A program made the translations under genes and the position numbers. The notes beneath the pieces were generated by a model, which did no database searches, was not told the DNA's origin, and saw only the letters and a list, made by a program, of their open reading frames with translations. A DNA stretch of 64,000 nucleotides, taken from Myxococcaceae bacterium. GTDB lineage: Bacteria; Myxococcota; Myxococcia; Myxococcales; Myxococcaceae. Position 1 is the stretch's first letter, and every line of letters begins with the position of its first letter. The DNA is taken from NCBI GenBank assembly GCA_035637895.1, contig DASRBA010000259.1, positions 6,714-70,713 of the forward strand. Reading direction: 5' to 3'. Shown one piece after another: positions 6,998-33,401 of this stretch.

Positions 6998-8933
<1,936 letters not shown>

Positions 8934-16605: not shown

Positions 16606-16715
16606 TTCGGGAGTCCTCCTGCGGCCAATGTAGGGAGGATCCCCGGTTGCGGCTTTTGGTCAGGCTGCGGACCGCCGCTCTAGCCATGGACCCGCGTCCG
16701 CGCGTAGATCGCCGC

Positions 16716-18215
16716 ATGCACAAGCTCGACGCCAACCAGGACCGGTACGGGAACTTCATCGGGGGCGAGTGGGTGCCGCCCTCCACCGGCAACTTCGCCG
16801 CCAACCGGAACCCCGCCGACCGGGACGACGTCGTCGGCCACTTCCCGGTGAGCGGGCAGAAGGACGCCGAGGACGCGGTGGCCGCCGCCAGGGCCGCCTT
16901 CCCGGGGTGGGCCGGCACGCCCGCTCCCTCGCGCGGCCGGGTGCTGTGGAAGGCGGTGGAGCTGTTCCGCCAGCGGCTGGACGAGATCGCCCGCACCCTC
17001 TGCCGCGAGGAGGGCAAGACCCTGGCCGAGGCCAAGGGCGAGGTGCAGAAGGGCATCAACCTCTTCGAGTTCTACGCGGGCGAGGGCTTCCGCCTCCACG
17101 GCAAGACGCTGCCGTCGGAGATGAAGCAGACGCTCACCTTCACCATCCGCCAGCCGCTGGGCGTGGTGGCCCTGGTGACGCCGTGGAACTTCCCGTTCGC
17201 GATCCCCGCGTGGAAGAGCGCGCCGGCGCTGGTCACCGGGAACACGGTGGTGCTCAAGCCGGCGTCCAACACGCCCGGCACCGCCACGCTGATCGCCGAG
17301 GTGCTGCACGACGCGGGGCTCCCCAAGGGCGTGTTCAACCTGGTCACCGGGCCGGGCGGCGCGGTGGGGAACACGCTGGTCGACCACCCGGAGGTGAAGG
17401 CGGTCTCGTTCACCGGGTCCAACGAGATCGGCCTGGCGCTCAACCAGCGCTGCGCCCGGCGCGGCATCAAGGTCACCTGCGAGATGGGGGGGAAGAATCC
17501 GGTGGTGGTGATGGATGACGGCGACCTCGACCTGGCGGTGAGCGGCATCCTGGGCGGGGCGTACGGGTCGACGGGGCAACGGTGCACCGCCACCTCGCGC
17601 GTCATCCTGCACAAGGCCATCGCGTCGAAGGTGACGGAGCGGCTGGTGGCGGGGGCGAAGGCGCTCAAGGTGGGGAACGGGCTGGAGGCGGGCATCGACA
17701 TGGGGCCGGCGGTGGATGACGGCCAGCTCCAGACGGACCTCAAGTACATCGAGGTGGCGCAGTCGGAGGGGGCGAAGCTGCAGTGCGGCGGGCAGCGGCT
17801 CACCGGCGGCGCGTACGACAAGGGCTACTTCGTGACGCCCACGGTGTTCAGTGGGGTGAAGCCGGGGATGCGCATCCACCAGGAGGAGGTCTTCGGGCCG
17901 GTCATCGCCGTGGTGGAGGTGGGTGACTTCGAGGAGGCGGTGGCGGCGGCGAACGGCGTGGAGTTCGGGTTGACCGCGTCGCTGTACACGCGGGACGCGA
18001 ACCTGGCGATGAAGTTCGTCGAGCGGTCGGAGGTCGGGATGGTGCACATCAACAACCCGACCGTCGGCGGGGAGGCGCAGCTCCCGTTCGGTGGGATCAA
18101 GTCCACCGGCGTCGGAGAGCGCGAGATGGCTGAGGAGGGGGCGGAGTTCTTCACCCACCTGAAGACGGTGTTCTTCGACTACACGGGGCAGGCGCGGACG
18201 TCGAAGATCTACTGA
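16716..18215 (+). CDS. NAD(P)-dependent aldehyde dehydrogenase
   Basis: MHKLDANQDRYGNFIGGEWV... N-terminus, VTPWNFP, catalytic CEMGGKNP and GQRCTA motifs. Start trimmed to the ATG at 16716. Confidence 0.9.
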   Translation: MHKLDANQDRYGNFIGGEWVPPSTGNFAANRNPADRDDVVGHFPVSGQKDAEDAVAAARAAFPGWAGTPAPSRGRVLWKAVELFRQRLDEIARTLCREEGKTLAEAKGEVQKGINLFEFYAGEGFRLHGKTLPSEMKQTLTFTIRQPLGVVALVTPWNFPFAIPAWKSAPALVTGNTVVLKPASNTPGTATLIAEVLHDAGLPKGVFNLVTGPGGAVGNTLVDHPEVKAVSFTGSNEIGLALNQRCARRGIKVTCEMGGKNPVVVMDDGDLDLAVSGILGGAYGSTGQRCTATSRVILHKAIASKVTERLVAGAKALKVGNGLEAGIDMGPAVDDGQLQTDLKYIEVAQSEGAKLQCGGQRLTGGAYDKGYFVTPTVFSGVKPGMRIHQEEVFGPVIAVVEVGDFEEAVAAANGVEFGLTASLYTRDANLAMKFVERSEVGMVHINNPTVGGEAQLPFGGIKSTGVGEREMAEEGAEFFTHLKTVFFDYTGQARTSKIY

Positions 18216-18327
18216 GGGAATGATCCGCACTGTGTTCAAGGAGTTGCTATTCAGTGGGGCTGAATAGTCGAACGGGTCGGCACGAGTCCCTTCTCGCGGA
18301 CAATGGTCCTTTCTTTACGGAGAAGAA

Positions 18328-19227
18328 GTGAGAAAGGTCTATCGCAACTCAAGTTACTCCATCTACCTTGATGACTGCTTGGAGTGGTTGCCCCGCCAAA
18401 AGGCGAACACGTTCCATGCCGTAGTCACAGATCCTCCATTTAGCACGCTTGAGTACAGTGCAAAGGAATTGCGGAAACGTCGCCGAGGACCCGGAGGTGT
18501 ATGGCGACTTCCACAAGCATCAGATGGCGCAATCCGACAGCCCGTTCCAAGATTCACGATCCTGAGTGGACATGACCACATCGGGGTGCTGGCGTTCCAC
18601 TTGCGCTTAGCGCCAGAGCTTCACCGCGTGTTGGTGCCTGGCGCGCATGTCTTCATTGCGAGCCATCCCCTCCTGTCACATCTGGTCGCACAGGCGTTCG
18701 GCATGGCTGGATTCGAGACGCGTGGTCAGATTATCAGGATCGTCAAGACGCTGAGAGGAGGGGATCGGCCGAAGCCCGACGACAAAGACTACAGAGGTTT
18801 GTCAGTCATCCCAAAATCGTGCTTCGAGCCTTGGCTTCTCTTCAGAAAGCCATGCAAGGGACGCGTTGTAGACAACTTAAGGCGCTATGGAGTTGGAGCC
18901 CTTAAAAGGCCGAGCGAGAAGGAGCCCTTCGCGGATTTGCTCAGTGTCTCTCAGACAAGAGCTTCTGAGCGACAACTAGGGGATCACCCTTCCTTGAAGC
19001 CCCAAGAATTGATGCGAAAGCTCGTACGAGCAGCTTTACCACTTGGGCAGGGAACAATCCTCGACCCCTTCATGGGCGCGGGCTCGACCATTGCGGCAGC
19101 GACGAACTTGGGGCTGCGGAGTGTGGGGGTTGAAAGCGACAAGACTTACTACCGATTGGCCAAAAGAGCGATTCCGAAGCTAGCGTGGTTCGAGGTGCCA
19201 GAAAGACCAACGGCGACAGTTGACTAA
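18328..19227 (+). CDS. DNA methyltransferase, beta-class N6-adenine/N4-cytosine type (motif IV DPPF before motif I FxGxGS)
   Basis: GTG start preceded by GGAGAAG. AVVTDPPFS at residue about 33 and DPFMGAGSTIAAA near the C-terminus. GC is markedly lower than the surrounding genome. Confidence 0.88.
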   Translation: MRKVYRNSSYSIYLDDCLEWLPRQKANTFHAVVTDPPFSTLEYSAKELRKRRRGPGGVWRLPQASDGAIRQPVPRFTILSGHDHIGVLAFHLRLAPELHRVLVPGAHVFIASHPLLSHLVAQAFGMAGFETRGQIIRIVKTLRGGDRPKPDDKDYRGLSVIPKSCFEPWLLFRKPCKGRVVDNLRRYGVGALKRPSEKEPFADLLSVSQTRASERQLGDHPSLKPQELMRKLVRAALPLGQGTILDPFMGAGSTIAAATNLGLRSVGVESDKTYYRLAKRAIPKLAWFEVPERPTATVD

Positions 19228-19880
19228 ATGCGTTTGGGGCTAAGCAGGTCCATTTGCTCTGCTGATGCTTTGGGGGCTTCTTGCAAATACACCCAGTTCT
19301 TCCGTAATTTCGCGATGCCCTTTCGGTCGAGAGTAGCCGTTCGGGTACCCAATTCACCTCGTGAATTGCGCCGAAAGTCAGCCCTGGTGACCTGAGCCAA
19401 GTATATCTCGGTAAACGTCATCGGCTTGCGATCCACGGCGGGCTCGGTCTCCCGGTCGATGCTGTACACAAACACGCACATCCACTGGTCGCGCGCTCCG
19501 TGGGTGTCGACCGCACCTCCCATCTTCCTAGTGGTCTTGATTTTCAAGCCCTGGGCGCCAGCCTTCACGCTGTTGCGCGGATACACGCCTTGCACCACTA
19601 GGTCTGGGTGGCCATTGAAGTACTTATTTTGGACCAGTGTTCGAGAATGCTTCGCCAGGCTCGCTGCCAGCATGTCTGATAGCAGTCCGGACATAATTGC
19701 GGGGCGAAGTGTGTCGTCCAGGCGGTGAAGACCCTTGCGGGTGAGAAGGAGGTTAACGTCAGAAAAGAAGTCGTACACGTCCTGAAGAGCCAGCTCAAAA
19801 TCCTTCAGGCGAAGTTCATATGGAAGCGCTCTGCCGGTGTTGAAGCTGGATGGGTTCGGGGTGTTCTTAGTGATTGGCAT
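19224..19880 (-). CDS. Hypothetical protein, candidate restriction endonuclease cognate to the adjacent methyltransferase (assignment by position only)
   Basis: 218-aa ORF convergent with the MTase and overlapping it by 4 bp at the stops. Low GC like the MTase. No recognisable family motif. Confidence 0.55.
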   Translation of the reverse strand: MPITKNTPNPSSFNTGRALPYELRLKDFELALQDVYDFFSDVNLLLTRKGLHRLDDTLRPAIMSGLLSDMLAASLAKHSRTLVQNKYFNGHPDLVVQGVYPRNSVKAGAQGLKIKTTRKMGGAVDTHGARDQWMCVFVYSIDRETEPAVDRKPMTFTEIYLAQVTRADFRRNSRGELGTRTATLDRKGIAKLRKNWVYLQEAPKASAEQMDLLSPKRI

Positions 19881-20051
19881 ATTCGAGGGAGCCTATTCTG
19901 CTGGACCTCCGATTCTGGCATAACTTGGCTCCTTGGAGAACCCAGGTCTTTAGCTGTTGTCTCCGTTGCGGATGCGGCCAAGCGCGAAAGACGGTGCAAA
20001 GTCGTGGGAATTCAAGAGTCTGTGTCGAAAGTTCGCGGATTCCTCGAAAGC

Positions 20052-21296
20052 ATGTATCCGGGCACGAAGCCCTTTGCGCGAGTGCGTGCTGTCCTCGAGC
20101 GAGTCGCAACGTGGCCGGGAGGGCCCGTGGCGATCGTTCTTCAGGGGCCACCGGGCGTAGGAAAGACGACCGCCGCGCGCGCCCTCGCCGTCGCCCGCGC
20201 TATCGCCACTGTTGACCCCGAGGTGCTCAATCTGGGGGAGGATCGAGCTGCGAAGATGGTGTTGCGGGACATCGAGATCGGTTGGTACCGCTCCATTTCC
20301 CTGCCCGGCCTGACCCCGTCATTAGCCGACAGCCAACTCTTTGGCCTAAAACCCAAGGGCGCAACGGACGTAGCTCCGCGGATTGGGCTGTTCGAGCAGA
20401 CCATGACCGGCGCTCGGGCCGGTTCCGGTGAATCGCACCAAGCCCTCATCCAGGAGGCACAAAAGGAGCGGCGCCGTATCAATCTCGTCACTGGAGGAGT
20501 CGTCCTCCTCGACGAGATCGGCGATGCACCTGAATGGGTGCAATTGAAGCTGCTTCGTCTGCTCAACGGGGAGCGAGTGGCACGTGTGCAAGGGGAAGGA
20601 GATCCTGATTACGAATTCTGTTTTCGCGGCATCATCGTGCTTGCTACCTGGCGGGAGCTTGACGGGAACAATGGGCTGCGGCCGGACTTCAAGCAAAGAA
20701 TCATAAGCAATCGTCTTCGGATGCCCAGTCTCTCAGAGTATCCAATTGAGGCTCGGCAGCGACTCGTTGTCTCAGTCGTCGAGGGCTCCAAAACAGCTCG
20801 AAGCGAAGCCCTGGCAGAGTTGGAAGGACTGTTCAGTGGGGCGGATGACCCGATCGCAAGCTCCTACCGCCTCGCGCTAAGCAAATCGAGGACGCTGACG
20901 ACCGCGGAGGTCACTGAGATCGCGAGTCAGGACTGGAGCCAACTGAGTGAGTTGCGCGGGCTCCGGGCCATTGTGCAGAAGGTCTATGACGGGTCCTCGG
21001 TCAAGGAGGCAGTCGCTGAGATTACCGATGAACTCCAAGCGCCGCAGGAAGGTGCTGTCCAAGAAGAGGCCGATCTAGCCCGATTCAAGCGGTATCTCTC
21101 CATGCCCGTGCCGCTCGCCACCGCGTTGCGGCAAGACAGCGTCGAGTGGGCAGGCAGGGTCAATAAACAACTGACCGAGCGCACCCACCGCTTCGATGAA
21201 GCCATCAGGAGCAGCGGGAGGAAGCGCGCTCAGGTCAAGAAGGACCTCGAAAACCTCCGACGCTCAAAAGCGAGTGGTCGACGCACTCCCAAGTGA
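20052..21296 (+). CDS. AAA+ ATPase, sigma54-activator-like core without GAFTGA loop or obvious HTH. Start uncertain (ATG 20052, or GTG 20004)
   Basis: Walker A IVLQGPPGVGKTT; Walker B VVLLDEIGDAPEWVQLKLLRLLNGERVARV...IIVLATWREL...DFKQRIISNRLRMPSLSEYP follows the bEBP AAA+ pattern. The track ORF start at 19725 overlaps the convergent gene, so the start was trimmed. Confidence 0.75.
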   Translation: MYPGTKPFARVRAVLERVATWPGGPVAIVLQGPPGVGKTTAARALAVARAIATVDPEVLNLGEDRAAKMVLRDIEIGWYRSISLPGLTPSLADSQLFGLKPKGATDVAPRIGLFEQTMTGARAGSGESHQALIQEAQKERRRINLVTGGVVLLDEIGDAPEWVQLKLLRLLNGERVARVQGEGDPDYEFCFRGIIVLATWRELDGNNGLRPDFKQRIISNRLRMPSLSEYPIEARQRLVVSVVEGSKTARSEALAELEGLFSGADDPIASSYRLALSKSRTLTTAEVTEIASQDWSQLSELRGLRAIVQKVYDGSSVKEAVAEITDELQAPQEGAVQEEADLARFKRYLSMPVPLATALRQDSVEWAGRVNKQLTERTHRFDEAIRSSGRKRAQVKKDLENLRRSKASGRRTPK

Positions 21297-21393
21297 GTGG
21301 CCGAACATCCGAGGAGCTTCGCCAACCCAGTGGTTCTGGGGTCTTGCAGAGCCAGAATGGGAGGCCCGCTGGTTGCAATTCAGTGGTCGCGAG

Positions 21394-21849
21394 GTGGCGT
21401 GCGCGATGATCAAGGTCGACGATGGCGAGCTACTCAGCGACATCCTCAAATGGTCGGTTGCTGGATTTGGCACCGCCTTCGAGGTGGCGGTTCCCTCTTT
21501 CGAGCCCTCCGGGTTGTTCTCGCGGAGCATGATGCAGGCGGCCGCTCTCGGGACGCGGGTCCGATTCTTCACCCGCTGGCCGGAGGAGAAGGACAAGCAG
21601 GACGCCTTGGCCCAGTTGATGGCTCACGATGTGGCCGTGGTCATCGTCCCCCACCTTCAAGCCCAAGCGGCGCTGCTGACCGATGAGTCCACCGGCCTGT
21701 GGTACGGCTGGGTCGAAGGGGTCGCCTTCCTGGGCTGCGGCGACGCCGAGGCCGTGTTGCTTCGGGAACTGCTGGAGACGATCGAAGATTGGGAGAGGGC
21801 GGCTAGCCGCGAGGTGCGGCGGCGCGCCTTCCAGAGGCGGCTGAACTGA
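21394..21849 (+). CDS. Small hypothetical protein (start uncertain: TTG 21373, GTG 21394 or ATG 21406)
   Basis: ORF in the operon gap between the AAA+ gene (ends 21296) and the P-loop gene (starts 21882), with protein-like composition (WFWGLAEPEWEARWLQF...). The portion of the track ORF upstream of 21296 overlaps the preceding gene. Confidence 0.5.
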   Translation: MACAMIKVDDGELLSDILKWSVAGFGTAFEVAVPSFEPSGLFSRSMMQAAALGTRVRFFTRWPEEKDKQDALAQLMAHDVAVVIVPHLQAQAALLTDESTGLWYGWVEGVAFLGCGDAEAVLLRELLETIEDWERAASREVRRRAFQRRLN

Positions 21850-21881
21850 AGCTAGCGGGTGGAGGAGAAAGGACAACGTCG

Positions 21882-23036
21882 ATGCAGAAGCGGATGTCGG
21901 AGTGGTTCTTCCTGAAGGACGAGTTCAGTTCGTTCATCGTCGACGCGCAGAAGCATGCGCAGCACCTGTGTGGTGTCGAGGATCGCAAGCTGCGCGACGA
22001 CCTGGCCCTTTCTTTGAGGGAGTGTGCCTACTCGCAGCGGGGTCACCATGCGATCATTTGGGGCAACGCCGGTCGTGGAAAGACACATCTAGCCCACCAT
22101 CTGGTGGTCACCGCTGTCGACAACCAGGCCATCCTGCCCATCTACGTGGACTGTCCGCCGTTTCCGTCGGCTAAGGCACCGCTCCACATGTTCTTCGGGG
22201 CGCTCCTCAAGTCGATTCCCTGGAAGACAGTCAAGGACTTCGTGGGCAAATACCGCGCGAAGGCAGAAAACGACTCGACGCTTGAGAAGCGCGTCCAAGA
22301 TGTACTCCAAGCAGACACGAACATCTACGACGCGATGGTGGAGGGACTGGGGATGGGAAAGGAGTCCTCGATCCGGAGTACTCTGGGCTGGCTTGGGGGC
22401 GAGCCCGGTGGGAAGGTGAACGCCGCCCACGAGGCACCCGAGCAGTTCACGGACGAGGGGCAATTAGCTCGCAACATCGGCGCGTTGGGGGAGATGCTCC
22501 TCATCGCAGAGGGAAAGAACCTCATTTTCTTGGTGGACGAAGCAGAGCGCTTTCAGACGATTGCCAGCGGAGAGCGTTACTGGATCTGGCTCTCCGCGAT
22601 TCGCGAGCTCTTCCGCCGGCCAGCTGTGGGATTGATCCTCTTTATCATCGCTCGGAATCGCGACGATATTCCAAATATCCTCTGGGAGGACGAAATAAGC
22701 TCAGTTATCGGTGGCAACAATATTCATGAGTCGGCGAATTTCGCGCAGCCGAGCGCCGAGAGCTTCCTCAAGGATCTGCTAGACACAGTGGTCAAGCGCA
22801 GTCCGGCGCCCACCGAATTGCAGAAGATTGTGCAGGAGAAGGGCGAGTCTCTGGAGACGTATCCTTTCACAAAATCCGCCTTCGAAGAATTTATTGCCCA
22901 CCATTCAATAGGCACGCTGACGAATATTCCACGAGCCATTATCGGGAGCCTTGAGCACTGCGCTCGTCGCGCGATGACCCTTGACAAGAAGTTGATCGAC
23001 CATGACGTCCTACGCAGGGTGATCGAAGGGGTCTGA
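21882..23036 (+). CDS. P-loop NTPase (Walker A GNAGRGKT, Walker B IFLVDEAE), unknown family
   Basis: HAIIWGNAGRGKTHLAHHLV and LIFLVDEAERF. 384 aa. Confidence 0.8.
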   Translation: MQKRMSEWFFLKDEFSSFIVDAQKHAQHLCGVEDRKLRDDLALSLRECAYSQRGHHAIIWGNAGRGKTHLAHHLVVTAVDNQAILPIYVDCPPFPSAKAPLHMFFGALLKSIPWKTVKDFVGKYRAKAENDSTLEKRVQDVLQADTNIYDAMVEGLGMGKESSIRSTLGWLGGEPGGKVNAAHEAPEQFTDEGQLARNIGALGEMLLIAEGKNLIFLVDEAERFQTIASGERYWIWLSAIRELFRRPAVGLILFIIARNRDDIPNILWEDEISSVIGGNNIHESANFAQPSAESFLKDLLDTVVKRSPAPTELQKIVQEKGESLETYPFTKSAFEEFIAHHSIGTLTNIPRAIIGSLEHCARRAMTLDKKLIDHDVLRRVIEGV

Positions 23037-23052
23037 AGGGCAGGGGAAGATC

Positions 23053-24414
23053 ATGGCCAGGATTAGAGTGGAATGCGAGCCGCGCATCACCTGGGATCCC
23101 GTCGTCGGCGGTCCGGGTGAGCAGTACGTCCACCTTGGCGCGGTCATCGACAGCGGGCGCCGCCGGACGGTCAAGTTTGACGCCGATGGGAATTTCGTCG
23201 TCTTGGAGGTCGGAAAACGAGGGAGTGGGAAGTCATTCGGATTGGGTTCGATTATGGAGGCCTTCGCCGCCGCCGCTGACACGTGCACCATTGCCAAGCA
23301 GAGCCCGAACCGGCGGGGTGTCCTGCTCTTGGACCCGCTGGATGTGCATTGGACCGCCATCTACCCCGTCCGGAAGGATGGTTCGGTCCACATGCAGGAG
23401 CAATACAAACTCCTGGAGCGTTTTCCAGAGGTCGCGGTCGAACCCATCAATGTCGCAGTGTACATGCCCGCCGGACGAGGTCGACCCGAGGACCCTGCTG
23501 TCTTCCGGGCATACCACCTTCCTGTCTGCGACCTCACGTCGGAGGACTTCGCGTTGCTCTACGGCGCGAACCTGGTGAGTGACCCGGCAGGAATGCTGAT
23601 TGGGGAAATCCACGACAAGGTGAGCCGGTTGGGGTTCACCCGAGGCGCCACCGACGTTCCTGCCAAGGAGGTCTTTGGCCTCCAGGACCTCATCGATTGC
23701 TTGCAGGATACGGACATACAGGCCAACTACACAGTGCAGACTCTGCGAGCCGTCCGGCAGCGCCTGCTGTCCTGGCTTCGCGATCCGCTTTTCCAACAGC
23801 CCTCCGGGACCCCGGTGACGGAACTGGTCCAGCCGGGGCGAATGGGCATCTTATGCCTCAACCGCCTCTCGGAAGAGATGCGTAACGTGGTCACCGCCGT
23901 CATCGTCCGGCGGCTCAAGGCGGATCGGAGCCGGGCGAGCAACCTGGAGCGTGATCGCGCCTTCAATCCGCACCCCCTCAATAGACCTGCGGGGTTACCG
24001 CGGACGATCCTAGCCATCGACGAGGCCCAAATGATCCTGCCGGCGACGGGAAATAGCCACGCGCGGAGCGCAATCGAGTCCTATGTCCTCGAAGGTCGAA
24101 ACTTCGGGCTCTCGATCTGGATGGCTACCCAACGGCCGCGAGGGGCCATCTCGGAAAGAGCTAAGAGCCAGATCGACACGCTAATCGTCCACAAACTATC
24201 CACGGCGGAGGATCTGGAGGCCGTGGCGGGTCTCCTCCAGTCTGCGGAGCCCCTCAAAATTAAGGTCAACGAGTCGGTGGTCCCCCTAGCAGAATTGACG
24301 CGCAGCCTCGATGTGGGGATGGCCATCGTCTCCAGCGGGAACGGGAACGTCCATCGCGCCTTCGTGGTCGAGATGCGGCCACGGGTCGTCGCCCACGGTG
24401 GCCAGGCGTTCTGA
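23053..24414 (+). CDS. HerA/FtsK-superfamily (DUF87-like) ATPase
   Basis: Walker A VGKRGSGKSFG, Walker B ILAIDEAQ, and the characteristic IWMATQRP...DTLIVHKL (ATQRP / arginine-finger region) seen in HerA/VirB4-like translocases. Confidence 0.8.
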   Translation: MARIRVECEPRITWDPVVGGPGEQYVHLGAVIDSGRRRTVKFDADGNFVVLEVGKRGSGKSFGLGSIMEAFAAAADTCTIAKQSPNRRGVLLLDPLDVHWTAIYPVRKDGSVHMQEQYKLLERFPEVAVEPINVAVYMPAGRGRPEDPAVFRAYHLPVCDLTSEDFALLYGANLVSDPAGMLIGEIHDKVSRLGFTRGATDVPAKEVFGLQDLIDCLQDTDIQANYTVQTLRAVRQRLLSWLRDPLFQQPSGTPVTELVQPGRMGILCLNRLSEEMRNVVTAVIVRRLKADRSRASNLERDRAFNPHPLNRPAGLPRTILAIDEAQMILPATGNSHARSAIESYVLEGRNFGLSIWMATQRPRGAISERAKSQIDTLIVHKLSTAEDLEAVAGLLQSAEPLKIKVNESVVPLAELTRSLDVGMAIVSSGNGNVHRAFVVEMRPRVVAHGGQAF

Positions 24415-24426
24415 CGAGGACCGGCC

Positions 24427-25707
24427 ATGCTCATCCCCCGTTTCTGCAACTACTACACCGATTACCAGCAGCGCTTGGGCTTCCTGAAGGTCTTGGCGAG
24501 AACGGGCGAAGGTGTGCGCGGGGGCCACGATCAGTACGTCGCTCGGCTAGAAGAACTCTACAACACTCGCGGCGCACGCCGGGGAAATCGACGGGCTGTT
24601 TTCGATCCGGAAGCGTTGCTTCAGCGCACTGAGATCCCCTCTTGGCAGGTGGGCTTCTACAAGCCTTACCTCGGACGCCTGGTCAACTGGGGCGAGATGT
24701 GCGGAATCATCGCCGCCAACGGCCGCCTCTCTGAATGGGCGCGCATCCTACTCATCATTGGCAAGGAACAATCGGAAGAACGAAAAGAAAACCCATTCAT
24801 CCTCTCCGAAGTCGAACGGGCCTTCTTCCTCCAACTCTTGTTGGTCCACGACCAGGTGCTGCGGGACCTGATCGTCAGCTTGGGCCAGCGTGCCCCAGGA
24901 ACACGGCTTGGCGTGCTGGAGAGTTGCTTGGTCACGCTGGATGCCCTGGGCTCCTTCGCTGACGGTATTCAAGGGCCAGGTATTGAGGCGGTGCAACTGC
25001 GCGTTGAGTTGCGCAACCTCCTCGAGCGCATCGCCAGAAAGTGGAAATTCGACCGTACGGCGTTCATGTCGCCAGACCGCCGGGCGGAGGCGCTGGCTGC
25101 CGTTCGGGAGGAGGGTTCACGAAGGAAACCACGCAACCGGTTGCTGGAGATGAACGCCATCTGCCGCTTCGAACAGCTCACCGACCTAGGCTTGCTGGTC
25201 AAGGAGCCCGCGGGCCGACGAGACTTAACTGGTGAGCAACGGCGCGCCGTGCGGACGGGGTGGGACTGGGAGGTGGCTCCTGGCCTGAACGACATGGCCT
25301 ACCGGCTCGCCTCGAACGCGTCGATAACAGAGATCCTCACCCACCATTGGATCGAGGTGTCGACCTGTGGGATGGGACCGGCACCACTAAAGGAGCTCCA
25401 GAAGGCGGAACTGGTCGAGGTACTGGATCGCGTGTTGCCGATGGCGCGTCGGCAGCTGGGGCCGGTCCAGGTCCATACCTGGGCGACGCTCGCTTCGCTG
25501 GAGGCGCTGCGCGGCCATGGCCGGCTGGAGATTGGCCAGGTCCACGAACTATTGGACGCACTGCAGCGAGATCCTGGCGCTGGCGACGTCATCCGGCAGG
25601 GCGGACGGCCGGATTTCTTGGGGCGGACCGCAGTGGTCTCCAGGGGTGGCTTGTCCTCGCTTCTTAGCTCCCATGGATCCGAGCGGCGAGGAGGCGACCG
25701 TGTCTGA
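24427..25707 (+). CDS. Hypothetical protein (defence-operon component, no recognisable domain)
   Basis: 426-aa ORF starting 13 nt after the HerA-like stop, with protein-like composition. Confidence 0.7.
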   Translation: MLIPRFCNYYTDYQQRLGFLKVLARTGEGVRGGHDQYVARLEELYNTRGARRGNRRAVFDPEALLQRTEIPSWQVGFYKPYLGRLVNWGEMCGIIAANGRLSEWARILLIIGKEQSEERKENPFILSEVERAFFLQLLLVHDQVLRDLIVSLGQRAPGTRLGVLESCLVTLDALGSFADGIQGPGIEAVQLRVELRNLLERIARKWKFDRTAFMSPDRRAEALAAVREEGSRRKPRNRLLEMNAICRFEQLTDLGLLVKEPAGRRDLTGEQRRAVRTGWDWEVAPGLNDMAYRLASNASITEILTHHWIEVSTCGMGPAPLKELQKAELVEVLDRVLPMARRQLGPVQVHTWATLASLEALRGHGRLEIGQVHELLDALQRDPGAGDVIRQGGRPDFLGRTAVVSRGGLSSLLSSHGSERRGGDRV

Positions 25708-26488
25708 TGAGTTTCACACCGCATGGATGGCCAGAATGCAGCAGGCAGAAAGAACGGCAAAGGACGTCATCGACATCTGCTCGAAGCTCCCGGCGAACCC
25801 CTTTGAGGCCCGAGCGCGCCTCCACAGTACCGCCAGCAAGCTCGAAGCGTCAGGCTTGCGTCCGCTGGCTCCCCCGATGGACTTGGTGCGCCATGTTGAG
25901 GACGAATGCGTGCGGGCGCGGGCTGAGTTCTGGGACCAGATGGCCGAGGCCTGCCGCCGCAAGGAATGGCCGATCGACGGCTCCACAAACCGGCGCCTGG
26001 TGGGTCGAGGGCTGATAATTGAGCTAACCGACGACGAAGTGCGCATCGATGAGATTTCACTCCGCCTTTCTCCTCACGCAGCTTCGGTGGTGGAGGTAAT
26101 CGCTGGCGAGGTCAGCGCATTGGTGCCGACGGACTTCAACCCTGAAAGATATATGGCCTTGCTGGTAACGGCTTACGACGCGGCCCCGGGCGGAGTGGAG
26201 AAGCCGCTGGAGGCGGTCTACCGAGCTGCCGTCTTTGCTTCTCAGAAGTCGGCGTTCTGGAAGGGGCTCAACCCGGACCATTTCGTGCGGTTAACGCGTC
26301 CCGCGTTCCGGGCGCGACTGGCCCGCTTGCTTCATCTTGGCACACGGACCGCAGACGGGCGGGAGATCAGGTTTGGGAGCACTGTCGTCGCAAAGGACGC
26401 CTGGGAAGTCTATTCCCCTGGCGAGGAACGGCTAGTACAGGTCGGCCGTATCTCGTTGGGTTACGCAGGTAGCCAACATGAACATTGA
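25673..26488 (+). CDS. Hypothetical protein (start uncertain: ATG 25673 overlapping the upstream gene, or ATG 25727)
   Basis: ORF continuing the operon. Its 3' end overlaps the next gene's start by 11 nt. Confidence 0.65.
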   Translation: MDPSGEEATVSDEFHTAWMARMQQAERTAKDVIDICSKLPANPFEARARLHSTASKLEASGLRPLAPPMDLVRHVEDECVRARAEFWDQMAEACRRKEWPIDGSTNRRLVGRGLIIELTDDEVRIDEISLRLSPHAASVVEVIAGEVSALVPTDFNPERYMALLVTAYDAAPGGVEKPLEAVYRAAVFASQKSAFWKGLNPDHFVRLTRPAFRARLARLLHLGTRTADGREIRFGSTVVAKDAWEVYSPGEERLVQVGRISLGYAGSQHEH

Positions 26489-27785
26489 CCAAGTTGATGA
26501 GTCGGAAGCGCGGCGAATCCTCCGTTCACTGCGCTCAGGTGCCACGCCCACTCAGTACGCCAGTCAGATCTTCGTAGGGCAGGGACCCTGGTTCGATACC
26601 GCGCGGAAGATGATGCACGACACCGCAATAGATGAGGACTTTGAGGTGCGGTTCCTCCGAGCCGCCTACGGCGGCGGCAAGACACTGTTCCTCCGCTGCC
26701 TCGAGGAGGCGGCCCGGGCCGACGGATGGGTCACGGCTTACGTACTCCTCAAGCAGGGCTCTGTGGAGTTGGACAAGTTCGACACGTGGGTGCGAGAGGT
26801 GGCACGCACCGTTGAGTTTCCTGACGCAAGCCGAGGGATGAACACTCTGCTAGAGCGGGCGATGGCTACGCACCTGAAGTCCCACGGCTATGATCCTAGC
26901 CGTGCTACTTCCTTGAATGTCCTGGAGCGCGCCGGAGAGGGCCTCGCGAAATTCTGCCGCGGGAGGGCGCTCGAATACGATTTCTCCTTAGCCCTACGTG
27001 CGACCCTCGAGGCCCGCTTTGAGCGTGACGAAATTCGACTCCATGAGATTGCCAAGTGGCTGAGTGGAGGATCTGAGAGACTGGCGGTCGACCCCGCCCG
27101 TTTCGGTTCGAACCCGCACCGCCCGGCTACGCGAGCTGGAGCAGTCCAGCTGAAACAGCTAGGACCGGGGACGGCCGATCAGTTGCTCCGGCTCCTGGCT
27201 CTGCTGACGAAGATGAGCGGGCAAAAGGGCCTGATGCTTTCCTTCGATGAGGTCGAATTGATCGGCACGCTTCCGGAGAAGCGATTGAAAATTGCACTCC
27301 AGACGCTTCGGGAGTTGGTCGATCACACGGATCCGGCTCTGGAACCGCCCTCGACGTGCCTGTTCGTGGCCGCGACGCCAGAGATGTTCGAGAGCCCGAG
27401 GATGCTGCCCAGTTACAAAGCGCTCCAGGACCGAGTCGACAAGCTTCCCACCTCGCGGCGTGGTCCCCCTAATCTGCGCGGTACGGTGATTGACCTCGAC
27501 GCGACCGAGTTAGGCGAAGGCGACCTCGCGGCACTGGCAGAGCGCATCATGGCGCTGTACCGGAAGAGCGGGGAGGACGTGCCTCCCAACTTGGATGGGC
27601 AGCTAAAGGAGTTGGTCAAGACCATCACGGTACGTCGCTACAGCATCGCCCGGCCGCGACTCTTATGCCGGTGCCTGCTTGACATCTTAGACGGCAAGTT
27701 CGGGGCCGACATGCCCCAGGAGATCGCTGCCAGGAACGAGCAGATGACGAAGGAACGTCAGACAGAGATGAGGGTTAAGGCGTGA
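26478..27785 (+). CDS. P-loop ATPase, BrxD/DUF2791-like (family recalled, not searched)
   Basis: N-terminal EARRILRSLRSGATP box followed by Walker A AAYGGGKTLFL and Walker B LMLSFDEVE. 435 aa. Confidence 0.75.
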   Translation: MNIDQVDESEARRILRSLRSGATPTQYASQIFVGQGPWFDTARKMMHDTAIDEDFEVRFLRAAYGGGKTLFLRCLEEAARADGWVTAYVLLKQGSVELDKFDTWVREVARTVEFPDASRGMNTLLERAMATHLKSHGYDPSRATSLNVLERAGEGLAKFCRGRALEYDFSLALRATLEARFERDEIRLHEIAKWLSGGSERLAVDPARFGSNPHRPATRAGAVQLKQLGPGTADQLLRLLALLTKMSGQKGLMLSFDEVELIGTLPEKRLKIALQTLRELVDHTDPALEPPSTCLFVAATPEMFESPRMLPSYKALQDRVDKLPTSRRGPPNLRGTVIDLDATELGEGDLAALAERIMALYRKSGEDVPPNLDGQLKELVKTITVRRYSIARPRLLCRCLLDILDGKFGADMPQEIAARNEQMTKERQTEMRVKA

Positions 27786-28855
27786 GTAGCCGCGACTCCT
27801 CTGCCCGACGGATCGTCCGCGCGCTGCGAAGCGGCGTAGCCAGTCCAGAGTCAGTGGTTCGCATGAAGATCGGAAGCGAGGAGATCGAGGCCCAGTTTAA
27901 TGCCGCGTTCGACGCCTTCCTGCAGGGCGGTCAGACGCCCGGCCCGATACTTTTAGAAGGCGACTGGGGGTCGGGGAAAACACACATCAAAACGCTGCTG
28001 CGCCATGAAATGCGGCGCCGCCAGATTCCGCATGTAGCAACCGCTCTTGGCCGTTACCAAGGCTCTCTGGCCCACCTGCACTTGACTGTGCCACAGTGGC
28101 TCACAACGGTCGACTTCGGGGGCGCGCGTGGACTGCGCGCCGCCCTGGACGCTGGCATTCTGTCTCCGGGCGGCACCCACGCCTGGGCCAATACTAAGGT
28201 CACGCCCTTCGCGGAAGGCTTACGATGGGCGTTAGGGGGCTGGGACGAGGCTGGTTGGCTGCGTGCGCTCGGACATTGCTACGCCATGCCGAACCAAGGC
28301 TACCAGCACTGGAAGGCGCTCGACTTAGTATTGTCGGCCGGGGAGTACGTGGCGACGGTCGGTGGAAGGGGAATCGCCCTCCTTTTGGACGAGGCCGAAA
28401 ACGTCTGCTTACAGCACGACATCAGGGGACGGAGGCGTAGCTACGATGCGCTGCGCCGGCTGTATCTCAGTCAACACTTCCTATTAACCTTGTTCGTGAC
28501 GGCACGGTTTCTCGATCAGGTTCAACAGGACTGGAGGCAGGGCCTGGCCTCGGGCTGGGTCTACTGGACGGAGGAGGCTCGTGAATTCGTCTCGAATCTG
28601 CGCCACATGACGCGCTTGAAGACGCCGGCCCTGAGGCTGAGCGACGCCAAGGAGTTGGTGCGGCGCATTCATGCTGTCTACCAGGAAGCATACGGGCCCA
28701 TTTCGTTCGCTACCTCGGAGGCGGACATCCTCCGGGCGTGGACGCGGACCCCAACTCACTCCGTGCGACTGTTGATCCGCTTGACCGTCAGCGATCTGGA
28801 CGTTGCGGCCGGGGTAACATCGACACGGACTCTAAATGAAGAGTCGGTTGCCTAG
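27782..28855 (+). CDS. P-loop ATPase, paralog of the preceding BrxD/DUF2791-like gene
   Basis: Same N-terminal box SARRIVRALRSGVASP, Walker A GDWGSGKTHIK, Walker B IALLLDEAE. 4-nt overlap (ATGA) with the upstream paralog. Confidence 0.75.
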   Translation: MSSRDSSARRIVRALRSGVASPESVVRMKIGSEEIEAQFNAAFDAFLQGGQTPGPILLEGDWGSGKTHIKTLLRHEMRRRQIPHVATALGRYQGSLAHLHLTVPQWLTTVDFGGARGLRAALDAGILSPGGTHAWANTKVTPFAEGLRWALGGWDEAGWLRALGHCYAMPNQGYQHWKALDLVLSAGEYVATVGGRGIALLLDEAENVCLQHDIRGRRRSYDALRRLYLSQHFLLTLFVTARFLDQVQQDWRQGLASGWVYWTEEAREFVSNLRHMTRLKTPALRLSDAKELVRRIHAVYQEAYGPISFATSEADILRAWTRTPTHSVRLLIRLTVSDLDVAAGVTSTRTLNEESVA

Positions 28856-29146
28856 TGCTATCGCAGGGTGAATGCTCGGGACTCTACGGGAGATGCACTT
28901 CGATGACGAGCGCTCTCAAGCGAAGGGTGTTGGGATGATACCTGTTCGGGGGATGCTCCACGGCGGCAACGGGACGTTGAAACCCAGTTCGTCGAACAGC
29001 ACGTCACGGGCCACCCCCTGTAGGTTGGGAGGCCGGCACGGCGAGTCCCGCCACGATGGCCGTACCTCCGACTATCACCCCGGGCCGCGTTGCGTTCCAC
29101 GCAAGTGCCTGTAGCGCCAGATTCTCACCGTCGAAACCGATCTCGG

Positions 29147-30028
29147 TTATGCACCGAGCGTAGCAAGCAGCGGGATGGCACGGGTGGCGGTGTCGAAATG
29201 GGTGGCGTCCAGTTCAATGCCGATGCTGCGGTAGCCAACCGCGACGGCGGCGGCAATGGTGGAACCTGCGCCCATGAACGGGTCCAAGACAACGCCCTCA
29301 CCGAGCGGCAGCGCGGCGCGAACGAGCTGGCGCATGAGAGCCTGCGGCTTGAGCGACGGGTGGGGCGCGATGGCGCGCTCCTTCTTGTGGGTGGGCGAAG
29401 ACCGGATAACGTCGACGAAAGGTGCATCCTCCGAGATGCGGCGGAGGCCGCCAGTCTTCCACTTGCGGAGGTTGTCTTGGACGCGGCCTTCGCAGGGCTT
29501 GCGGAACAGGCCCCAGGGCTCCCAACAGGAGCGAGGCATCACGGTGACGTTGGCGAACTCCTCGTGTGCGTTTTTGGGACGGTCGCCACCGCGGAGGGTC
29601 TGCACGAGGCGGATGATCTCCCCACGCTTCTCGAAGCCAGCACCCGTTAGCGCTTGGTAAAGGACATGCGAAAGCAGTGGGTTCGTGGCGATAAACATGT
29701 GGGCGCCGGGAACGAGCACGCGGTAGGCGCGCACAGCGAAGTCTGCGAAGAATCGTCCCAGTGCCTCAAGGTCATCGACCGTAAGCACGGTGAAGCGCGG
29801 CAGGGGACTTCGCCTGGAGCCGTCGAATGACGGAGGAATCCGCCAGACGCCGCCGCGGTCTCGCCGGAGCTTCTCCTGCTCCCGCGCAGAGTACTCCTTC
29901 AGACCATACGGTGGGTCAGTGACAATTGCGTGGATGGAGTCGGGTGGTTGCGCGTCCATCCACCCCAAACAGTCTCCTTGGTGGATGGTGTGGCTGGCAT
30001 CGAACGCTAGCGCGGCCAGAGCGGTCAT
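29147..30028 (-). CDS. DNA methyltransferase, beta-class N6A/N4C type, paralog of the 18328..19227 MTase and in inverted orientation
   Basis: AIVTDPPYGL (motif IV) and DPFMGAGSTIAAA (motif I). Collinear with MTase-1 along the whole length at about 55% identity by eye (RDRGGVWRIP, LPRFT, RVLVPGAHMFIA, NPLLSH, LRGGDRPK, HPSLKPQ, LVRAALPLG). Confidence 0.88.
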   Translation of the reverse strand: MTALAALAFDASHTIHQGDCLGWMDAQPPDSIHAIVTDPPYGLKEYSAREQEKLRRDRGGVWRIPPSFDGSRRSPLPRFTVLTVDDLEALGRFFADFAVRAYRVLVPGAHMFIATNPLLSHVLYQALTGAGFEKRGEIIRLVQTLRGGDRPKNAHEEFANVTVMPRSCWEPWGLFRKPCEGRVQDNLRKWKTGGLRRISEDAPFVDVIRSSPTHKKERAIAPHPSLKPQALMRQLVRAALPLGEGVVLDPFMGAGSTIAAAVAVGYRSIGIELDATHFDTATRAIPLLATLGA

Positions 30029-30064
30029 CGCGCCGATCTTGCCAGTGTTTATGATACCTCAAAT

Positions 30065-30526
30065 TTAATTTCCGTAGTGACCTTCCTCAAAGTCCCAGAT
30101 TCCCCCTTGCTCGCCCTGTTCCAGGACCGAGTAGACGGCATGGACGTCGGCCTGCGGGGGGACATCGACCGCCCGGAGACATCCAGATCCCTGCTCAAAA
30201 GTGCATCCTAGCTCCGACAGCCGCGCCCACCACTCCCCGACTCGGCCGGCTTCGGCATCGTTGTTGAGCATGACGCGGTAGGTGGAGTGGCCGCCGCGGA
30301 TCGACACACTTTCGAACTCGAACAGCCCGTCCGCAGGGTGCGCAAAGACGACGTCTTCTGCGCTCACCCCGAAGGCGTAGAACGGCACGTTGCGAAGTCG
30401 CAGTCGGCGCTCGTCGATGCGTTCCGCCCAGAGTGTCTCGGTCGCTGAGCCATGCCATGCCCCCGGCTCCAACTGGAACCGCACCTTCACGAGATCGCCT
30501 TCGGCACGGTGGTGATCGGCCGTCAT
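30065..30526 (-). CDS. Candidate immunity protein for the upstream HNH toxin (DUF4265-like, recalled)
   Basis: 153-aa ORF whose start overlaps the toxin's stop by 4 nt. Acidic, Trp-containing composition (ETLWAERIDERRLRLRNVPFYAFG). Confidence 0.55.
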   Translation of the reverse strand: MTADHHRAEGDLVKVRFQLEPGAWHGSATETLWAERIDERRLRLRNVPFYAFGVSAEDVVFAHPADGLFEFESVSIRGGHSTYRVMLNNDAEAGRVGEWWARLSELGCTFEQGSGCLRAVDVPPQADVHAVYSVLEQGEQGGIWDFEEGHYGN

Positions 30527-31692
30527 TTGGCACCTTGGAGGTGCTCTTCCGTGGTCTTTGCGCCCTTCTCCAAATTACAAGTCCGACAGGTGTTCTGAGC
30601 GTTGTCGATCGTGTTGTTTCCTCCCCGCGACTTGGGCTGAGCGTGGTCCGTGTTCCGTTGGCTCGGTCCTGGTTCGTCGGTGGTCTCCTTGCCACAGAAC
30701 ACGCATTTCCCATCCGCGTGGGACTCAGCAGCGTCCTTGGTCTGTGGAGAGAATCTCTTGCCCGCTCCGGGTCCGCCGGACGCTCCCGCCTTGGGACCAG
30801 CGGACATGGCCACCGCGCCGCCGAGGTCGATGACCACGCTCCCATTCGCCGCGAGCGTGAGGGAGCGGGTGCCTTCAATTTCGGGAATCCGGAAGCCTTG
30901 TGCCTCCGCCAGCGCGGCAGCTCTCGAGCCTCCGGGGAGGTCGAGGGCGCTTCCCTTGAACAGCCCCGCGAACTTGGCGACGCCATACGTGGCGACCATC
31001 ACCACGATGCGCCCCACCGTTGGGCCCATGCGCTGTCCGTAGTGGATGCCGGCCACTCGGACGCCCGCGAAGTCCCGAGCGAGCTTCAGTTCGTCCAGCA
31101 TGGAGATGAAGCCCTTCACCACATTGTTGAAGACGTCCACCCCCACGAAGGCGATCAGGTTGCTCATCGAGACCATGAACAGAATCTTCGTGACCGGCTC
31201 AGGAGAGAGCAGTTCCACGATCATCCCCAGGAACAGCACGCTCAACATCGCGCGCACCTGGTCAGCGGTCATGGAACGGACCGCGGAGGCCGCATCCTCC
31301 AGTGCCTCAGCGAACGCGAAGTGCAGGGCTACGAAGGTGGCGCCTTCGTCATCCAACTCGCCTGAGGCGTTCAGGTCGTCCCAGCAATCGAACCGCTTGC
31401 CGGTGATGTGGTGGCACCACCGGAGGTACCCCTCGGCCTTGAGCCGCTGCATCGGGTCATCGCCAGCGAGGATGAACCGCGGTCTTCCGTTCTTCGGCAG
31501 ACCAGGAAGCGGGCCGTTGGCGTACAGCATCCGCATCCCTTGCTGGAGCTCCTCGCGGCTGAGGTCCACGGGCTTGTATCCGCCCGGACGGATGACCAGC
31601 ACCGACGGCGCAGAGACACGGCGTTGCTGGACCGGCAGCCCAGGAATGGCCGTCGAGCAAGCGCACAGGAAGGTGACCACCCACACAGCCAT
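30523..31692 (-). CDS. Lipoprotein polymorphic-toxin-like protein with C-terminal HNH nuclease domain
   Basis: Start trimmed to the ATG at 31692, giving MAVWVVTFLCACSTA (lipoprotein signal). The C-terminus CVFCGKET...DHAQPKSRGGNNTIDNAQNTCRTCNLEKG is a classic HNH (C..C...DH..P.S.GG.N..N....C..CN..K). Confidence 0.72.
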   Translation of the reverse strand: MAVWVVTFLCACSTAIPGLPVQQRRVSAPSVLVIRPGGYKPVDLSREELQQGMRMLYANGPLPGLPKNGRPRFILAGDDPMQRLKAEGYLRWCHHITGKRFDCWDDLNASGELDDEGATFVALHFAFAEALEDAASAVRSMTADQVRAMLSVLFLGMIVELLSPEPVTKILFMVSMSNLIAFVGVDVFNNVVKGFISMLDELKLARDFAGVRVAGIHYGQRMGPTVGRIVVMVATYGVAKFAGLFKGSALDLPGGSRAAALAEAQGFRIPEIEGTRSLTLAANGSVVIDLGGAVAMSAGPKAGASGGPGAGKRFSPQTKDAAESHADGKCVFCGKETTDEPGPSQRNTDHAQPKSRGGNNTIDNAQNTCRTCNLEKGAKTTEEHLQGAK

Positions 31693-31733
31693 GGTCTTCG
31701 GCCAGCCGAGCATGCCGGCATTATGGTCTACGC

Positions 31734-33401
31734 GTGCTCGGTCCACTCATGCGGGTCGCGCTCTCCGTGGGCGCCTCCCGTTTCCGCGGGAAGTTCCTCT
31801 TCGATACCCGGCGCGCCCAGGCGGTGAATGACGCGCTCCTCATGGGGCTGCTCCGGCGGAACGAGGGCACCGTCTACGGACGGCGGTACGGCTTCTCGCG
31901 GCTCTCGACCCCGGACGGCTACCGCGCCTCCGTCCCGCTCACCTCGTACCCGGACTACGAGCCCTACGTGGCGCGGATCGCCAGGGGCGAGCAGGGCGTG
32001 CTCACCATGGAGCCCGTCCACCACCTCGGGCTCTCCTCGGGGACCACCGGCAAGCAGAAGATGATCCCCATCACGCGCACCGCGCAGCGGCAGGTCGCGC
32101 TGAGCATGGTGTTCCTCTCCCAGGGAATGCTGAACGCCGCCCTCCCCGCCTCCCGAGGGCGCGGCGTGCTGATGATGAGCGCCGGCACCAGCGGCAAGAC
32201 CGAGGCGGGCATCACCTATGGGCCGGCCACGGCGAGCGGCATGGCCTCCATGATCCGCATGAGCAAGCACCTGTGGACCACGCCGCCGGACGCGCTCGTG
32301 CTGCTGGACCAGCGCACCGTGCTCCACCTCCACCTGCTGTTCGGGCTCAAGGAGCGCGACCTCCGCTACCTGAGCGCGACGTTCGCGTCGTCGATCATGG
32401 ACCTCTTCCACCTGCTCGAGCGCGCCGGCCCGGTGCTCGCGGAGGAGCTGGCGACCGGGAAGCTGTCCGACGAGCTGAACCTCTCCGGCGAGTCGCGGGC
32501 GCGGCTGGAGGCGGCCCTCGGCAAGGATCCCGGGCGCGCCAGGCAGCTCCTGGACGAGCTGGCGCGGGGGCACGACGGGATCGCCAGAAGGCTCTGGCCC
32601 CGGCTCGAGTACGTCAACACCGTCACCGGTGGAAGCTTCGCCGTCTACGCCCAGAAGCTGCGCCCGTACCTCGGAGGGGTGCCGCTGTTCTCGTCCGTCT
32701 ACGCATCGACGGAGGGAGTCATCGGCGTCGCCACGAAGTCCGAGGACACCAGCTACGCCATGGTGCCGTCCGCGTGCTACTTCGAGCTGCTGCCCGCCGG
32801 CGAGGTGGACTCCGCGGCGCCGAGGACGGTGACGCTGGAGGAGGCACAGGACGGCGAGCACTACGAGGTCGTCCTCACCAACCGTTCCGGGTTCTACCGG
32901 TACCGGCTGGGGGACATGGTGAAGGTGGTGGGGCGGCTCCATCGGACGCCGGTCGTGGAGTTCCTCTTCCGGCGCGGTCAGCTCCTCAACCTCTCCGGCG
33001 AGAAGACGTCGGAGCAGGCGGCGCTGGCCGCCGTGATGGACTCCGCGAAGCGGTGGGGAACGCCGCTGATCGACTTCACCACGCAGGCGGACGCGGATGC
33101 CGCGCCCGCCAGGTACGTGTTCTTCGTCGAGGTGAAGGAGCCGGCGGCGCTGGTAGGGCGCGCGACCGCCGCGGATGACCTGGATCAGGCGCTCGGGAAG
33201 GCGAATCCCCGGTACGAGGCGGCGAGGGAGGCCGGGAAGCTGGGGAGGCCTGTCCTTCATCCGGTGAAGCCGGAGACGTTCGCGCGGGTGAAGGCGCTGC
33301 TGATCGAGAAGGGCGCGTCGATCAACCAGGTGAAGATCCCGCGCGTGGTCGGCGCCGGCGACGTCCTCCAGCTCCTCCGGGCGTCAGGCGCCGGCGTGTA
33401 G
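31734..33401 (+). CDS. GH3 family (auxin-responsive GH3-like acyl-adenylate) protein
   Basis: GTG at 31734 (or ATG 31749). LTSYPDYEPYV...LGLSSGTTGKQKMIPIT... matches the GH3 N-terminal adenylation motif region. 555 aa. Confidence 0.8.
   Translation: MLGPLMRVALSVGASRFRGKFLFDTRRAQAVNDALLMGLLRRNEGTVYGRRYGFSRLSTPDGYRASVPLTSYPDYEPYVARIARGEQGVLTMEPVHHLGLSSGTTGKQKMIPITRTAQRQVALSMVFLSQGMLNAALPASRGRGVLMMSAGTSGKTEAGITYGPATASGMASMIRMSKHLWTTPPDALVLLDQRTVLHLHLLFGLKERDLRYLSATFASSIMDLFHLLERAGPVLAEELATGKLSDELNLSGESRARLEAALGKDPGRARQLLDELARGHDGIARRLWPRLEYVNTVTGGSFAVYAQKLRPYLGGVPLFSSVYASTEGVIGVATKSEDTSYAMVPSACYFELLPAGEVDSAAPRTVTLEEAQDGEHYEVVLTNRSGFYRYRLGDMVKVVGRLHRTPVVEFLFRRGQLLNLSGEKTSEQAALAAVMDSAKRWGTPLIDFTTQADADAAPARYVFFVEVKEPAALVGRATAADDLDQALGKANPRYEAAREAGKLGRPVLHPVKPETFARVKALLIEKGASINQVKIPRVVGAGDVLQLLRASGAGV

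Follow-up and report, generated by a model that had tools for sequence, protein, structure and literature searches.

A candidate sitAI-type toxin/immunity operon of a divergent SitA5 branch in an uncultured member of the Myxococcaceae

In this study, we analysed a 64,000-nucleotide stretch of DNA from Myxococcaceae bacterium (GenBank assembly GCA_035637895.1, contig DASRBA010000259.1, positions 6,714 to 70,713 of the forward strand; the whole stretch is called the window below), and within it two overlapping minus-strand genes, the first encoding a predicted lipoprotein with a C-terminal HNH nuclease and the second a small acidic protein of the DUF4265 family. We consider it likely that the pair is a polymorphic toxin/immunity operon of the sitAI type, belonging to a divergent branch of SitA5 in an uncultured member of the Myxococcaceae, a reading that includes the delivery of the toxin to neighbouring cells. 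Those parts of an initial annotation of this DNA that can be computed from the letters all held. Definitions of the SitA families follow PMC8546572, PMC5562445 and PMC10433427, and the features of the pair, with lengths in amino acids (aa), are as follows.

30523-31713, minus strand: sitA5-like toxin gene, 396 aa plus stop; alternative starts ATG 31692 and GTG 31746
31657-31713, minus strand: signal peptide and lipobox, MLGWPKTMAVWVVTFL-C-A-C19, as read from the sequence
30799-31656, minus strand: escort (delivery) domain of SitA5 type, aa 20-305, ending ...GSVVIDLGGAVAMSA; the alignment shows a sharp boundary at aa 305
30526-30798, minus strand: C-terminal toxin module, aa 306-396, with the HNH nuclease after a Gly-rich linker
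30565-30705, minus strand: HNH catalytic core, C337-x2-C340 ... D356-H357 ... N366/N367 ... N371 ... C376-x2-C379-N380 ... K383
30523-30526, minus strand: ATGA overlap of the toxin stop with the immunity start, sequence ...GCCAAATGACGG...
30065-30526, minus strand: sitI-like immunity gene, 153 aa, isoelectric point (pI) 4.9, full-length DUF4265

The assignment to SitA5 comes from the middle domain of the toxin. This domain matches the NCBIfam model NF050093 (SitA5_escort) with E=7e-32 and 111 bits, and five sampled members of the same clade score 96-124 bits on that model (E=1e-27 to 1e-36). When a clade profile built from the escort alignment was searched against 1.84 billion representative proteins, it retrieved 406 relatives (E<=1e-3), of which 104 reach E<=1e-30; among 10 matches sampled, 5 pass the SitA5 cutoff (216-338 bits) and 5 score 112-140 bits, and the proteins with 216-338 bits on NF050093 were retrieved by the clade profile at E=1e-45 to 1e-28. 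By these profile comparisons we judge the middle domain to be homologous to the SitA5 escort. The initial annotation had noted a middle domain of unknown function; the domain is present, the label gives way to SitA5-type escort homology, and the wording "SitA-like" becomes specific. The escort also has a conserved Cys100/Cys110 and three moderately hydrophobic helices. Two observations on close relatives belong here. One allele of the toxin (P0003, 321 aa, on a JGI contig of 2037 bp) has lost about 75 residues inside the escort, but its HNH module is intact and its DUF4265 partner is present; possibly it is a copy in decay. In another locus (L002/L003, 3638-3892), a gene for an 84-aa TonB_C-domain protein lies directly upstream of the sitA5-like gene P0006, which is curious given that entry of SitA5 is reported to need an ExbB1/TonB system (PMC8546572).

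The second line of evidence is the exchange of modules among relatives. Relatives of the escort (55-77% identical over that domain), all with the FLCACS lipobox, carry different C-termini, among them AHH (PF14412), LHH (PF14411), PF15524 and several unclassified domains, and the toxins switch at a sharp junction directly after ...AMSA. DUF4265 was present at none of the four non-HNH escort loci inspected, where the downstream same-strand gene is SUKH/SMI1 (one locus), an unannotated open reading frame (ORF) of 110 aa or 115 aa (two loci) or missing (P0009). The HNH module in turn is carried, with identities of up to 77%, by Rhs/YD-shell proteins, by Hint-domain proteins and by a second, unrelated lipoprotein family. 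DUF4265 follows directly in all five inspected loci that have the module on Rhs/YD-shell or other scaffolds, two of these being clearly Rhs/YD-shell (a protein from an Acidobacteriaceae metagenome-assembled genome (MAG) and a 1162-aa protein), and it is also the next gene at the two closest loci, including L012, and at an orphan HNH fragment. At least nine further pairs of HNH and DUF4265 matches agree in the size of the longest contig, and one pair has adjacent locus tags (JWM53_3075/3074). Toxin domain and downstream gene thus change together on a constant escort, which is the signature of a cognate toxin/immunity pair; the polymorphic toxin cassette of the initial annotation is borne out, and the possibility that it had raised against itself, a conserved housekeeping pair showing no polymorphism, is answered in the negative by this co-variation.

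Two of these loci deserve separate mention. The orphan fragment (95-106 aa; L013/L014, 3684-4477; GCA_036389955.1, a Myxococcaceae MAG) lacks any delivery domain, is followed by a DUF4265 gene that overlaps it by 4 nt, and could be a displaced or spare toxin/immunity module. The second lipoprotein family (P0026, P0030, P0035 and P0038; L006, L007 and L010) joins a lipobox of the form L-x-G-C and the same HNH module to an unrelated N-terminal domain of about 330-430 aa that matched no NCBIfam model, and it adjoins a conserved YiaAB-LysR pair in Archangium-like genomes; its N-terminal domain may be another SitA-type escort family.

The C-terminus of the toxin was searched as the initial annotation had suggested, and the HNH nuclease it named was found: HNH_5 (1.7e-10) and HNH (1.3e-8) both score above their gathering cutoffs. 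The module (pI 8.4) begins with a Gly-rich linker with conserved positions G310, G313, G314, G316 and F321, and its HNH is of the PF14279/PF01844 type, with the catalytic His in a D-H pair, the Asn residues and two CxxC pairs of zinc ligands. C337, C340, D356, H357, N371, C376, C379 and N380 show no variation across 74 homologous C-terminal domains, and N366/N367 are conserved in 96-97%, so the loss of catalytic residues that was once entertained does not apply. Among solved chains, an "HNH nuclease domain-containing protein" matches best (E=8.4e-7), followed by IscB/Cas9, with the same motifs, and the nearest named NCBIfam models are Cas9d and IscB. Judged by these motifs, the module is a predicted zinc-stabilised HNH (beta-beta-alpha-metal) nuclease of about 60 aa, with all catalytic residues intact.

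At the other end of the protein, the lipobox FLCACS was confirmed. It reads L-C-A-C in the context VVTFL-C-A-C19-S-T-A-I-P-G, so that Ser stands at +2 and Gly at +7. An alignment of 15 relatives shows Cys19 in every sequence and Ala18 in nearly every one. In the two most distant of them, the only Cys present is that at the position of Cys19, which points to Cys19 as the lipidated residue. For Myxococcus xanthus, localisation in the outer membrane is predicted by the rule of no Lys at +2 and no Ala at +7 (PMC5562445). The toxin therefore has the type II signal peptide, the lipobox Cys and the outer-membrane-type sorting residues by which SitA proteins are defined.

The downstream gene, described before as a small acidic protein of the immunity kind with DUF4265 suggested as a family to search, encodes 153 aa with a pI of 4.9 and is a full-length DUF4265 (PF14085; E=1.5e-27, 96.3 bits versus a cutoff of 27, 115/115 profile positions). 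No function for DUF4265 was found in the literature searched. That DUF4265 is the cognate immunity family for the HNH module of the toxin is a well-supported guess from sequence comparison, and possibly a new point. The previously noted 4-nt overlap between toxin stop and next gene lies at ATGA 30523-30526 and recurs between toxin and DUF4265 gene in L012, L013 and L016; such an overlap is predicted to couple translation of the toxin and immunity genes.

Both ORFs appear to be genuine genes rather than chance ones, given their codon-position pattern and their substitution rates. GC content at codon position 3 versus 2 is 0.79/0.48 in the toxin gene and 0.74/0.45 in the small ORF, and against the orthologues in L012 (about 90% identical DNA) the ratio of nonsynonymous to synonymous substitution rates (dN/dS) amounts to 0.13 in the toxin gene (0.15 in the escort, 0.06 in the HNH module) and to 0.26 in the small ORF. 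Purifying selection acts on the escort, the toxin module and the immunity gene alike, and no diversifying selection on sitI was seen in that comparison (dN/dS 0.26 versus the L012 orthologue). As to the start of the toxin, the longest ORF runs from GTG 31746 to the stop at 30523 (407 aa, from the ORF list), the form from ATG 31713 has 396 aa and begins MLGWPKTMAVWVVTFLCACS, and a start at ATG 31692 yields 389 aa, with no charged n-region in the signal peptide. The likely start is probably ATG 31713, since the NCBI record uses the same one (P0001, "HNH endonuclease [Myxococcaceae bacterium]", 396 aa, 100% identity) and the form fits homologues with K/R before the hydrophobic core. The initial annotation had placed the ORF correctly on the minus strand; its start at 31692 is probably 21 nt short, and from there the product has 389 aa, not 390. 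The toxin gene (31713) and the GH3-family gene (31749) are divergent, with a gap of only about 35 bp (31714-31748) between their starts. A search for promoters of sigma-70 type detected none, and with so short a gap the toxin and GH3 promoters must either overlap coding sequence or be non-canonical. Terminator-like matches sit in coding sequence of one or the other strand.

The operon lies at the edge of a variable stretch of DNA, whose main features are given here.

18216-31733, no strand: variable slot with low GC content at third codon positions (GC3), between the aldehyde dehydrogenase gene (16647-18215) and the GH3-family gene (31749-33401), with sitAI at its right end
29147-30028, minus strand: N6/N4 methyltransferase, 293 aa, from the ORF list and a domain search

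Genes of the slot (about 18.3-31.7 kb) have a GC3 of 0.65-0.80 versus 0.90-0.98 in the flanking genes, and for the sitAI pair itself the values are 0.74-0.80 versus 0.95-0.96 in its flanking genes. The codon usage of the pair is foreign, in line with the earlier view that the cassette sits on an acquired island next to a second methyltransferase; the gene for the 293-aa N6/N4 methyltransferase begins 36 bp past the end of the small ORF, in the same orientation. As sitAI loci are often found on mobile DNA (PMC8546572), foreign codon usage and location in a variable slot fit what has been published. A contig of a relative (L012, from JGI sample 3300020125) is collinear with the window beyond the slot, with DNA identities of 96% in the aldehyde dehydrogenase and 92% in the protein kinase, and its GH3 gene lies, together with sitA and sitI, in the 90%-identical segment. 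Its slot holds sitA (92% aa identity), sitI (76%), a 1208-aa SIR2-domain gene, the 293-aa methyltransferase (89%) and a 120-aa ORF. The SIR2 gene is missing from the window, which has instead a 10.8-kb block (18216-29036) beyond the methyltransferase that is absent from L012. The two slots thus have sitAI and the methyltransferase in common, at the end nearest to GH3, and differ in their other cargo. An ENA assembly has the identical sitA-sitI-methyltransferase arrangement. The slot behaves like a hot spot in which defence cargo can be exchanged.

The cargo itself gave several observations. In L012, the gene that stands in this slot between sitI and the methyltransferase, at 6557-10183, encodes 1208 aa with a SIR2_2 domain. 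The block of the window (18216-29036, low GC3) encodes an N6/N4 methyltransferase (18328-19227), an RtcR/sigma54-like AAA+ ATPase (19725-21296), a STAND/AAA_16-like ATPase (21882-23036), a mad8/HerA-like protein (23053-24414), unknown ORFs (24427-26488) and two tandem BrxD-like ATPases (26478-27785 and 27782-28855), and looks like an uncharacterised methylation-linked defence system. It is bracketed by two methyltransferases (18328-19227, plus strand; 29147-30028, minus strand) that are paralogues, 56% identical and in opposite orientation, and that are both matched best by the same PADLOC Type II methyltransferase model. A search for repeats or attachment (att) sites at the island borders gave only short matches at chance level, no transfer RNA gene was found in the window, and neither an integrase nor a transposase domain turned up in domain scans of the ORFs of the slot. 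Just left of the island, in high-GC core DNA, lies a gene for a PSCyt2/PSD1 (DUF1549/DUF1553) protein (13813-15396, minus strand). This domain pair is best known from Planctomycetes.

By analogy with SitA biology (PMC5562445, PMC8546572 and PMC10433427), the toxin would be anchored in the inner leaflet of the outer membrane and would pass to neighbours with a compatible TraA receptor during outer-membrane exchange, and we infer that its delivery is TraAB-dependent. The escort would then take the nuclease across the recipient's periplasm and inner membrane into the cytoplasm, a step that in SitA5 depends on ExbB1 and partly on MXAN_0057 (PMC8546572, PMC5562445, PMC10433427). There the HNH domain would degrade DNA unless the recipient makes the cognate DUF4265 protein, which would stay in the cytoplasm of its producer, not being transferred, and would bind and block the nuclease. 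The cassette would therefore kill otherwise compatible non-clonemates, and would also stabilise the variable DNA segment that carries it.

A number of points weigh against this sitAI reading. The escort, at 111 bits, does not reach the curated SitA5_escort cutoff of 160 bits and aligns only to profile positions 102-258 of 262, its N-terminal residues, about 100 of them, are clade-specific and unmatched by the SitA5 model, and its length of about 285 aa compares with about 375 aa quoted for SitA escorts. An AlphaFold (AF2) model of the escort has a helical core modelled with confidence at aa 87-248 but a mean pLDDT (predicted local distance difference test) of only 64, and Foldseek found nothing against the PDB at E<=0.001, no informative structural neighbour, so the fold yields no clue to the mechanism. 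Nearly all members of the subclade are metagenomic and come without taxonomy, one relative on a 2.1-kb contig is binned as Gemmatimonadales, and the sole match in a cultured genome, found with the escort profile in a scan of species-representative genomes, is a single locus in Vitiosangium at 37% identity, although a pattern scan of species representatives is too narrow to describe taxonomic range. Also, general domain searches showed no TraA/TraB-like protein among the ORFs at 13813-33401, and no search aimed at traA/traB was made. A word-indexed protein search with the escort alone gave just 36 proteins, almost all metagenomic, which contributed nothing on taxonomy. SitA genomes are characterised by 15 to >80 sitAI loci each, and the four distinct loci of the escort clade from one metagenome sample (3300020125) are no more than suggestive of many loci per genome. 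While the scores fall below the cutoff, the clade profile retrieves proteins that pass it, thus we regard the clade as a divergent, shorter SitA5 branch that is not canonical by the NCBI threshold.

Several of these points would equally suit a genuine lipoprotein HNH toxin/immunity pair that travels by a route other than TraAB, namely in outer-membrane vesicles, by surface contact killing of prey or by release into the medium: the escort is below the SitA5 threshold with its first ~100 residues unmatched, the subclade comes almost wholly from uncultured organisms, and the HNH-DUF4265 module combines with several delivery systems. However, the homology to bona fide SitA5 escorts is reciprocal and strong, the order of lipobox, escort and modular nuclease with an overlapping immunity gene is the architecture of SitA (PMC8546572, PMC5562445), and the source is labelled Myxococcaceae, thus we hold another route to be unlikely. 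A housekeeping nuclease of the periplasm or outer membrane with its inhibitor, or a functionless decaying relic, would be in keeping with the one copy visible in the window and with the escort deletion of about 75 aa in P0003, which suggests that some alleles decay; but with C-terminal domains and downstream genes swapped among close relatives, foreign codon usage, purifying selection on every part and intact catalytic residues, there is very little probability left for either.

The neighbourhood raises yet another reading, in which the HNH protein is a restriction or defence nuclease paired with the methyltransferase at 29147-30028 in a defence island. The methyltransferase starts 36 bp downstream on the same strand, the toxin has a weak match to a PADLOC REase_II model (E=1e-4, 20 bits), the island has BrxD-like and HerA/mad8-like genes, and an unrelated HNH-DUF4265 locus (L010) likewise has a methyltransferase downstream. 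However, the PADLOC match is limited to the generic HNH core, the L010 methyltransferase is not orthologous, the 1208-aa SIR2 gene parts sitI from the methyltransferase in L012, and most HNH-DUF4265 pairs have no methyltransferase nearby; moreover, a lipoprotein exported by Sec cannot restrict DNA in the cytoplasm. With both the export signal and the comparative context against it, the restriction reading was rejected, its probability being close to negligible. The idea of a conserved HNH-DUF4265-methyltransferase trio, which L010 had suggested, was rejected as well, as the methyltransferases are similar only at the level of motifs and other loci lack one.

SitA5 toxins, some of them with an HNH domain, have already been published, as has their location on mobile DNA (PMC8546572), and the understanding of SitA-type systems itself is unchanged by our finding. 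What the sitAI reading would add is an extension of the SitA5 kin-discrimination family to uncultured Myxococcaceae. A whole escort branch, almost only metagenomic, escapes the curated SitA5 model and carries no annotation beyond "HNH endonuclease", thus counts of sitAI loci that are based on annotation will be too low. The pair also offers a functional guess, immunity to an HNH toxin, for DUF4265 and for the orphan structure PDB 5UEB, an unpublished structural-genomics entry for a hypothetical protein of Neisseria gonorrhoeae with 16% identity only. We lean, with some reserve, towards a broader proposal in which DUF4265, including 5UEB, is a dedicated immunity family for one zinc-ribbon HNH toxin module that moves between SitA lipoproteins, Rhs/YD-shell proteins and further scaffolds across several phyla, and in which the window protein represents a short-escort SitA5 branch of uncultured myxobacteria that current annotation models miss (the NCBI label is "HNH endonuclease"). 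Finally, sitAI keeps a fixed place at the border of its slot while the anti-phage cargo there varies among close relatives, which fits the published idea that such pairs help to retain mobile DNA.

Like SitA5/SitI5 of Myxococcus, the pair of the window has a lipoprotein signal, a homologous escort, a modular C-terminal nuclease and an immunity gene immediately downstream, and like them it has no sitB and is located on variable, acquired DNA. SitA4-7 were reportedly defined in a PNAS paper of 2019; examples of SitA5 are SitA5^Mf1 and SitA5^Mf2 from M. fulvus (Vassallo & Wall 2019; Vassallo et al. 2021; PMC8546572). Upstream of sitA the window has no sitB gene, and SitA5 cassettes are written "sitAI5", without B (PMC8546572). 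SitA5^Mf1 of M. fulvus carries an HNH of the PF13391 type (PMC8546572), whereas that of the window is of the PF14279/PF01844 type. Unlike in Myxococcus SitA5, the escort is shorter and divergent (111 bits versus 160) with its N-terminal third unmatched, and the immunity partner, DUF4265, is a further difference from SitA5/SitI5. In the Rhs/YD-shell toxins (P0058 from Acidobacteriaceae and the 1162-aa protein of L017), the Gly-rich linker and HNH are 55-77% identical to those of the window and DUF4265 is again the next gene, but these proteins use an Rhs cage, and probably a type VI or other secretion system, in place of lipobox and escort. Colicins E7 and E9 are HNH DNases that enter related cells by means of an N-terminal translocation domain, with energy from a Ton/Tol-type system, and that are neutralised by a small acidic immunity protein (Im) from the same operon. 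The analogy of SitA with colicins has been drawn before (PMC8546572), and it extends to the present pair, a predicted beta-beta-alpha-metal HNH DNase with a translocation domain and a small acidic immunity protein. However, neither the translocation domain nor the immunity protein is related in sequence to those of the colicins, the HNH of the window is a CxxC zinc-ribbon form near Cas9d and IscB, and, unlike the secreted colicins, the toxin is predicted to be anchored by lipid.

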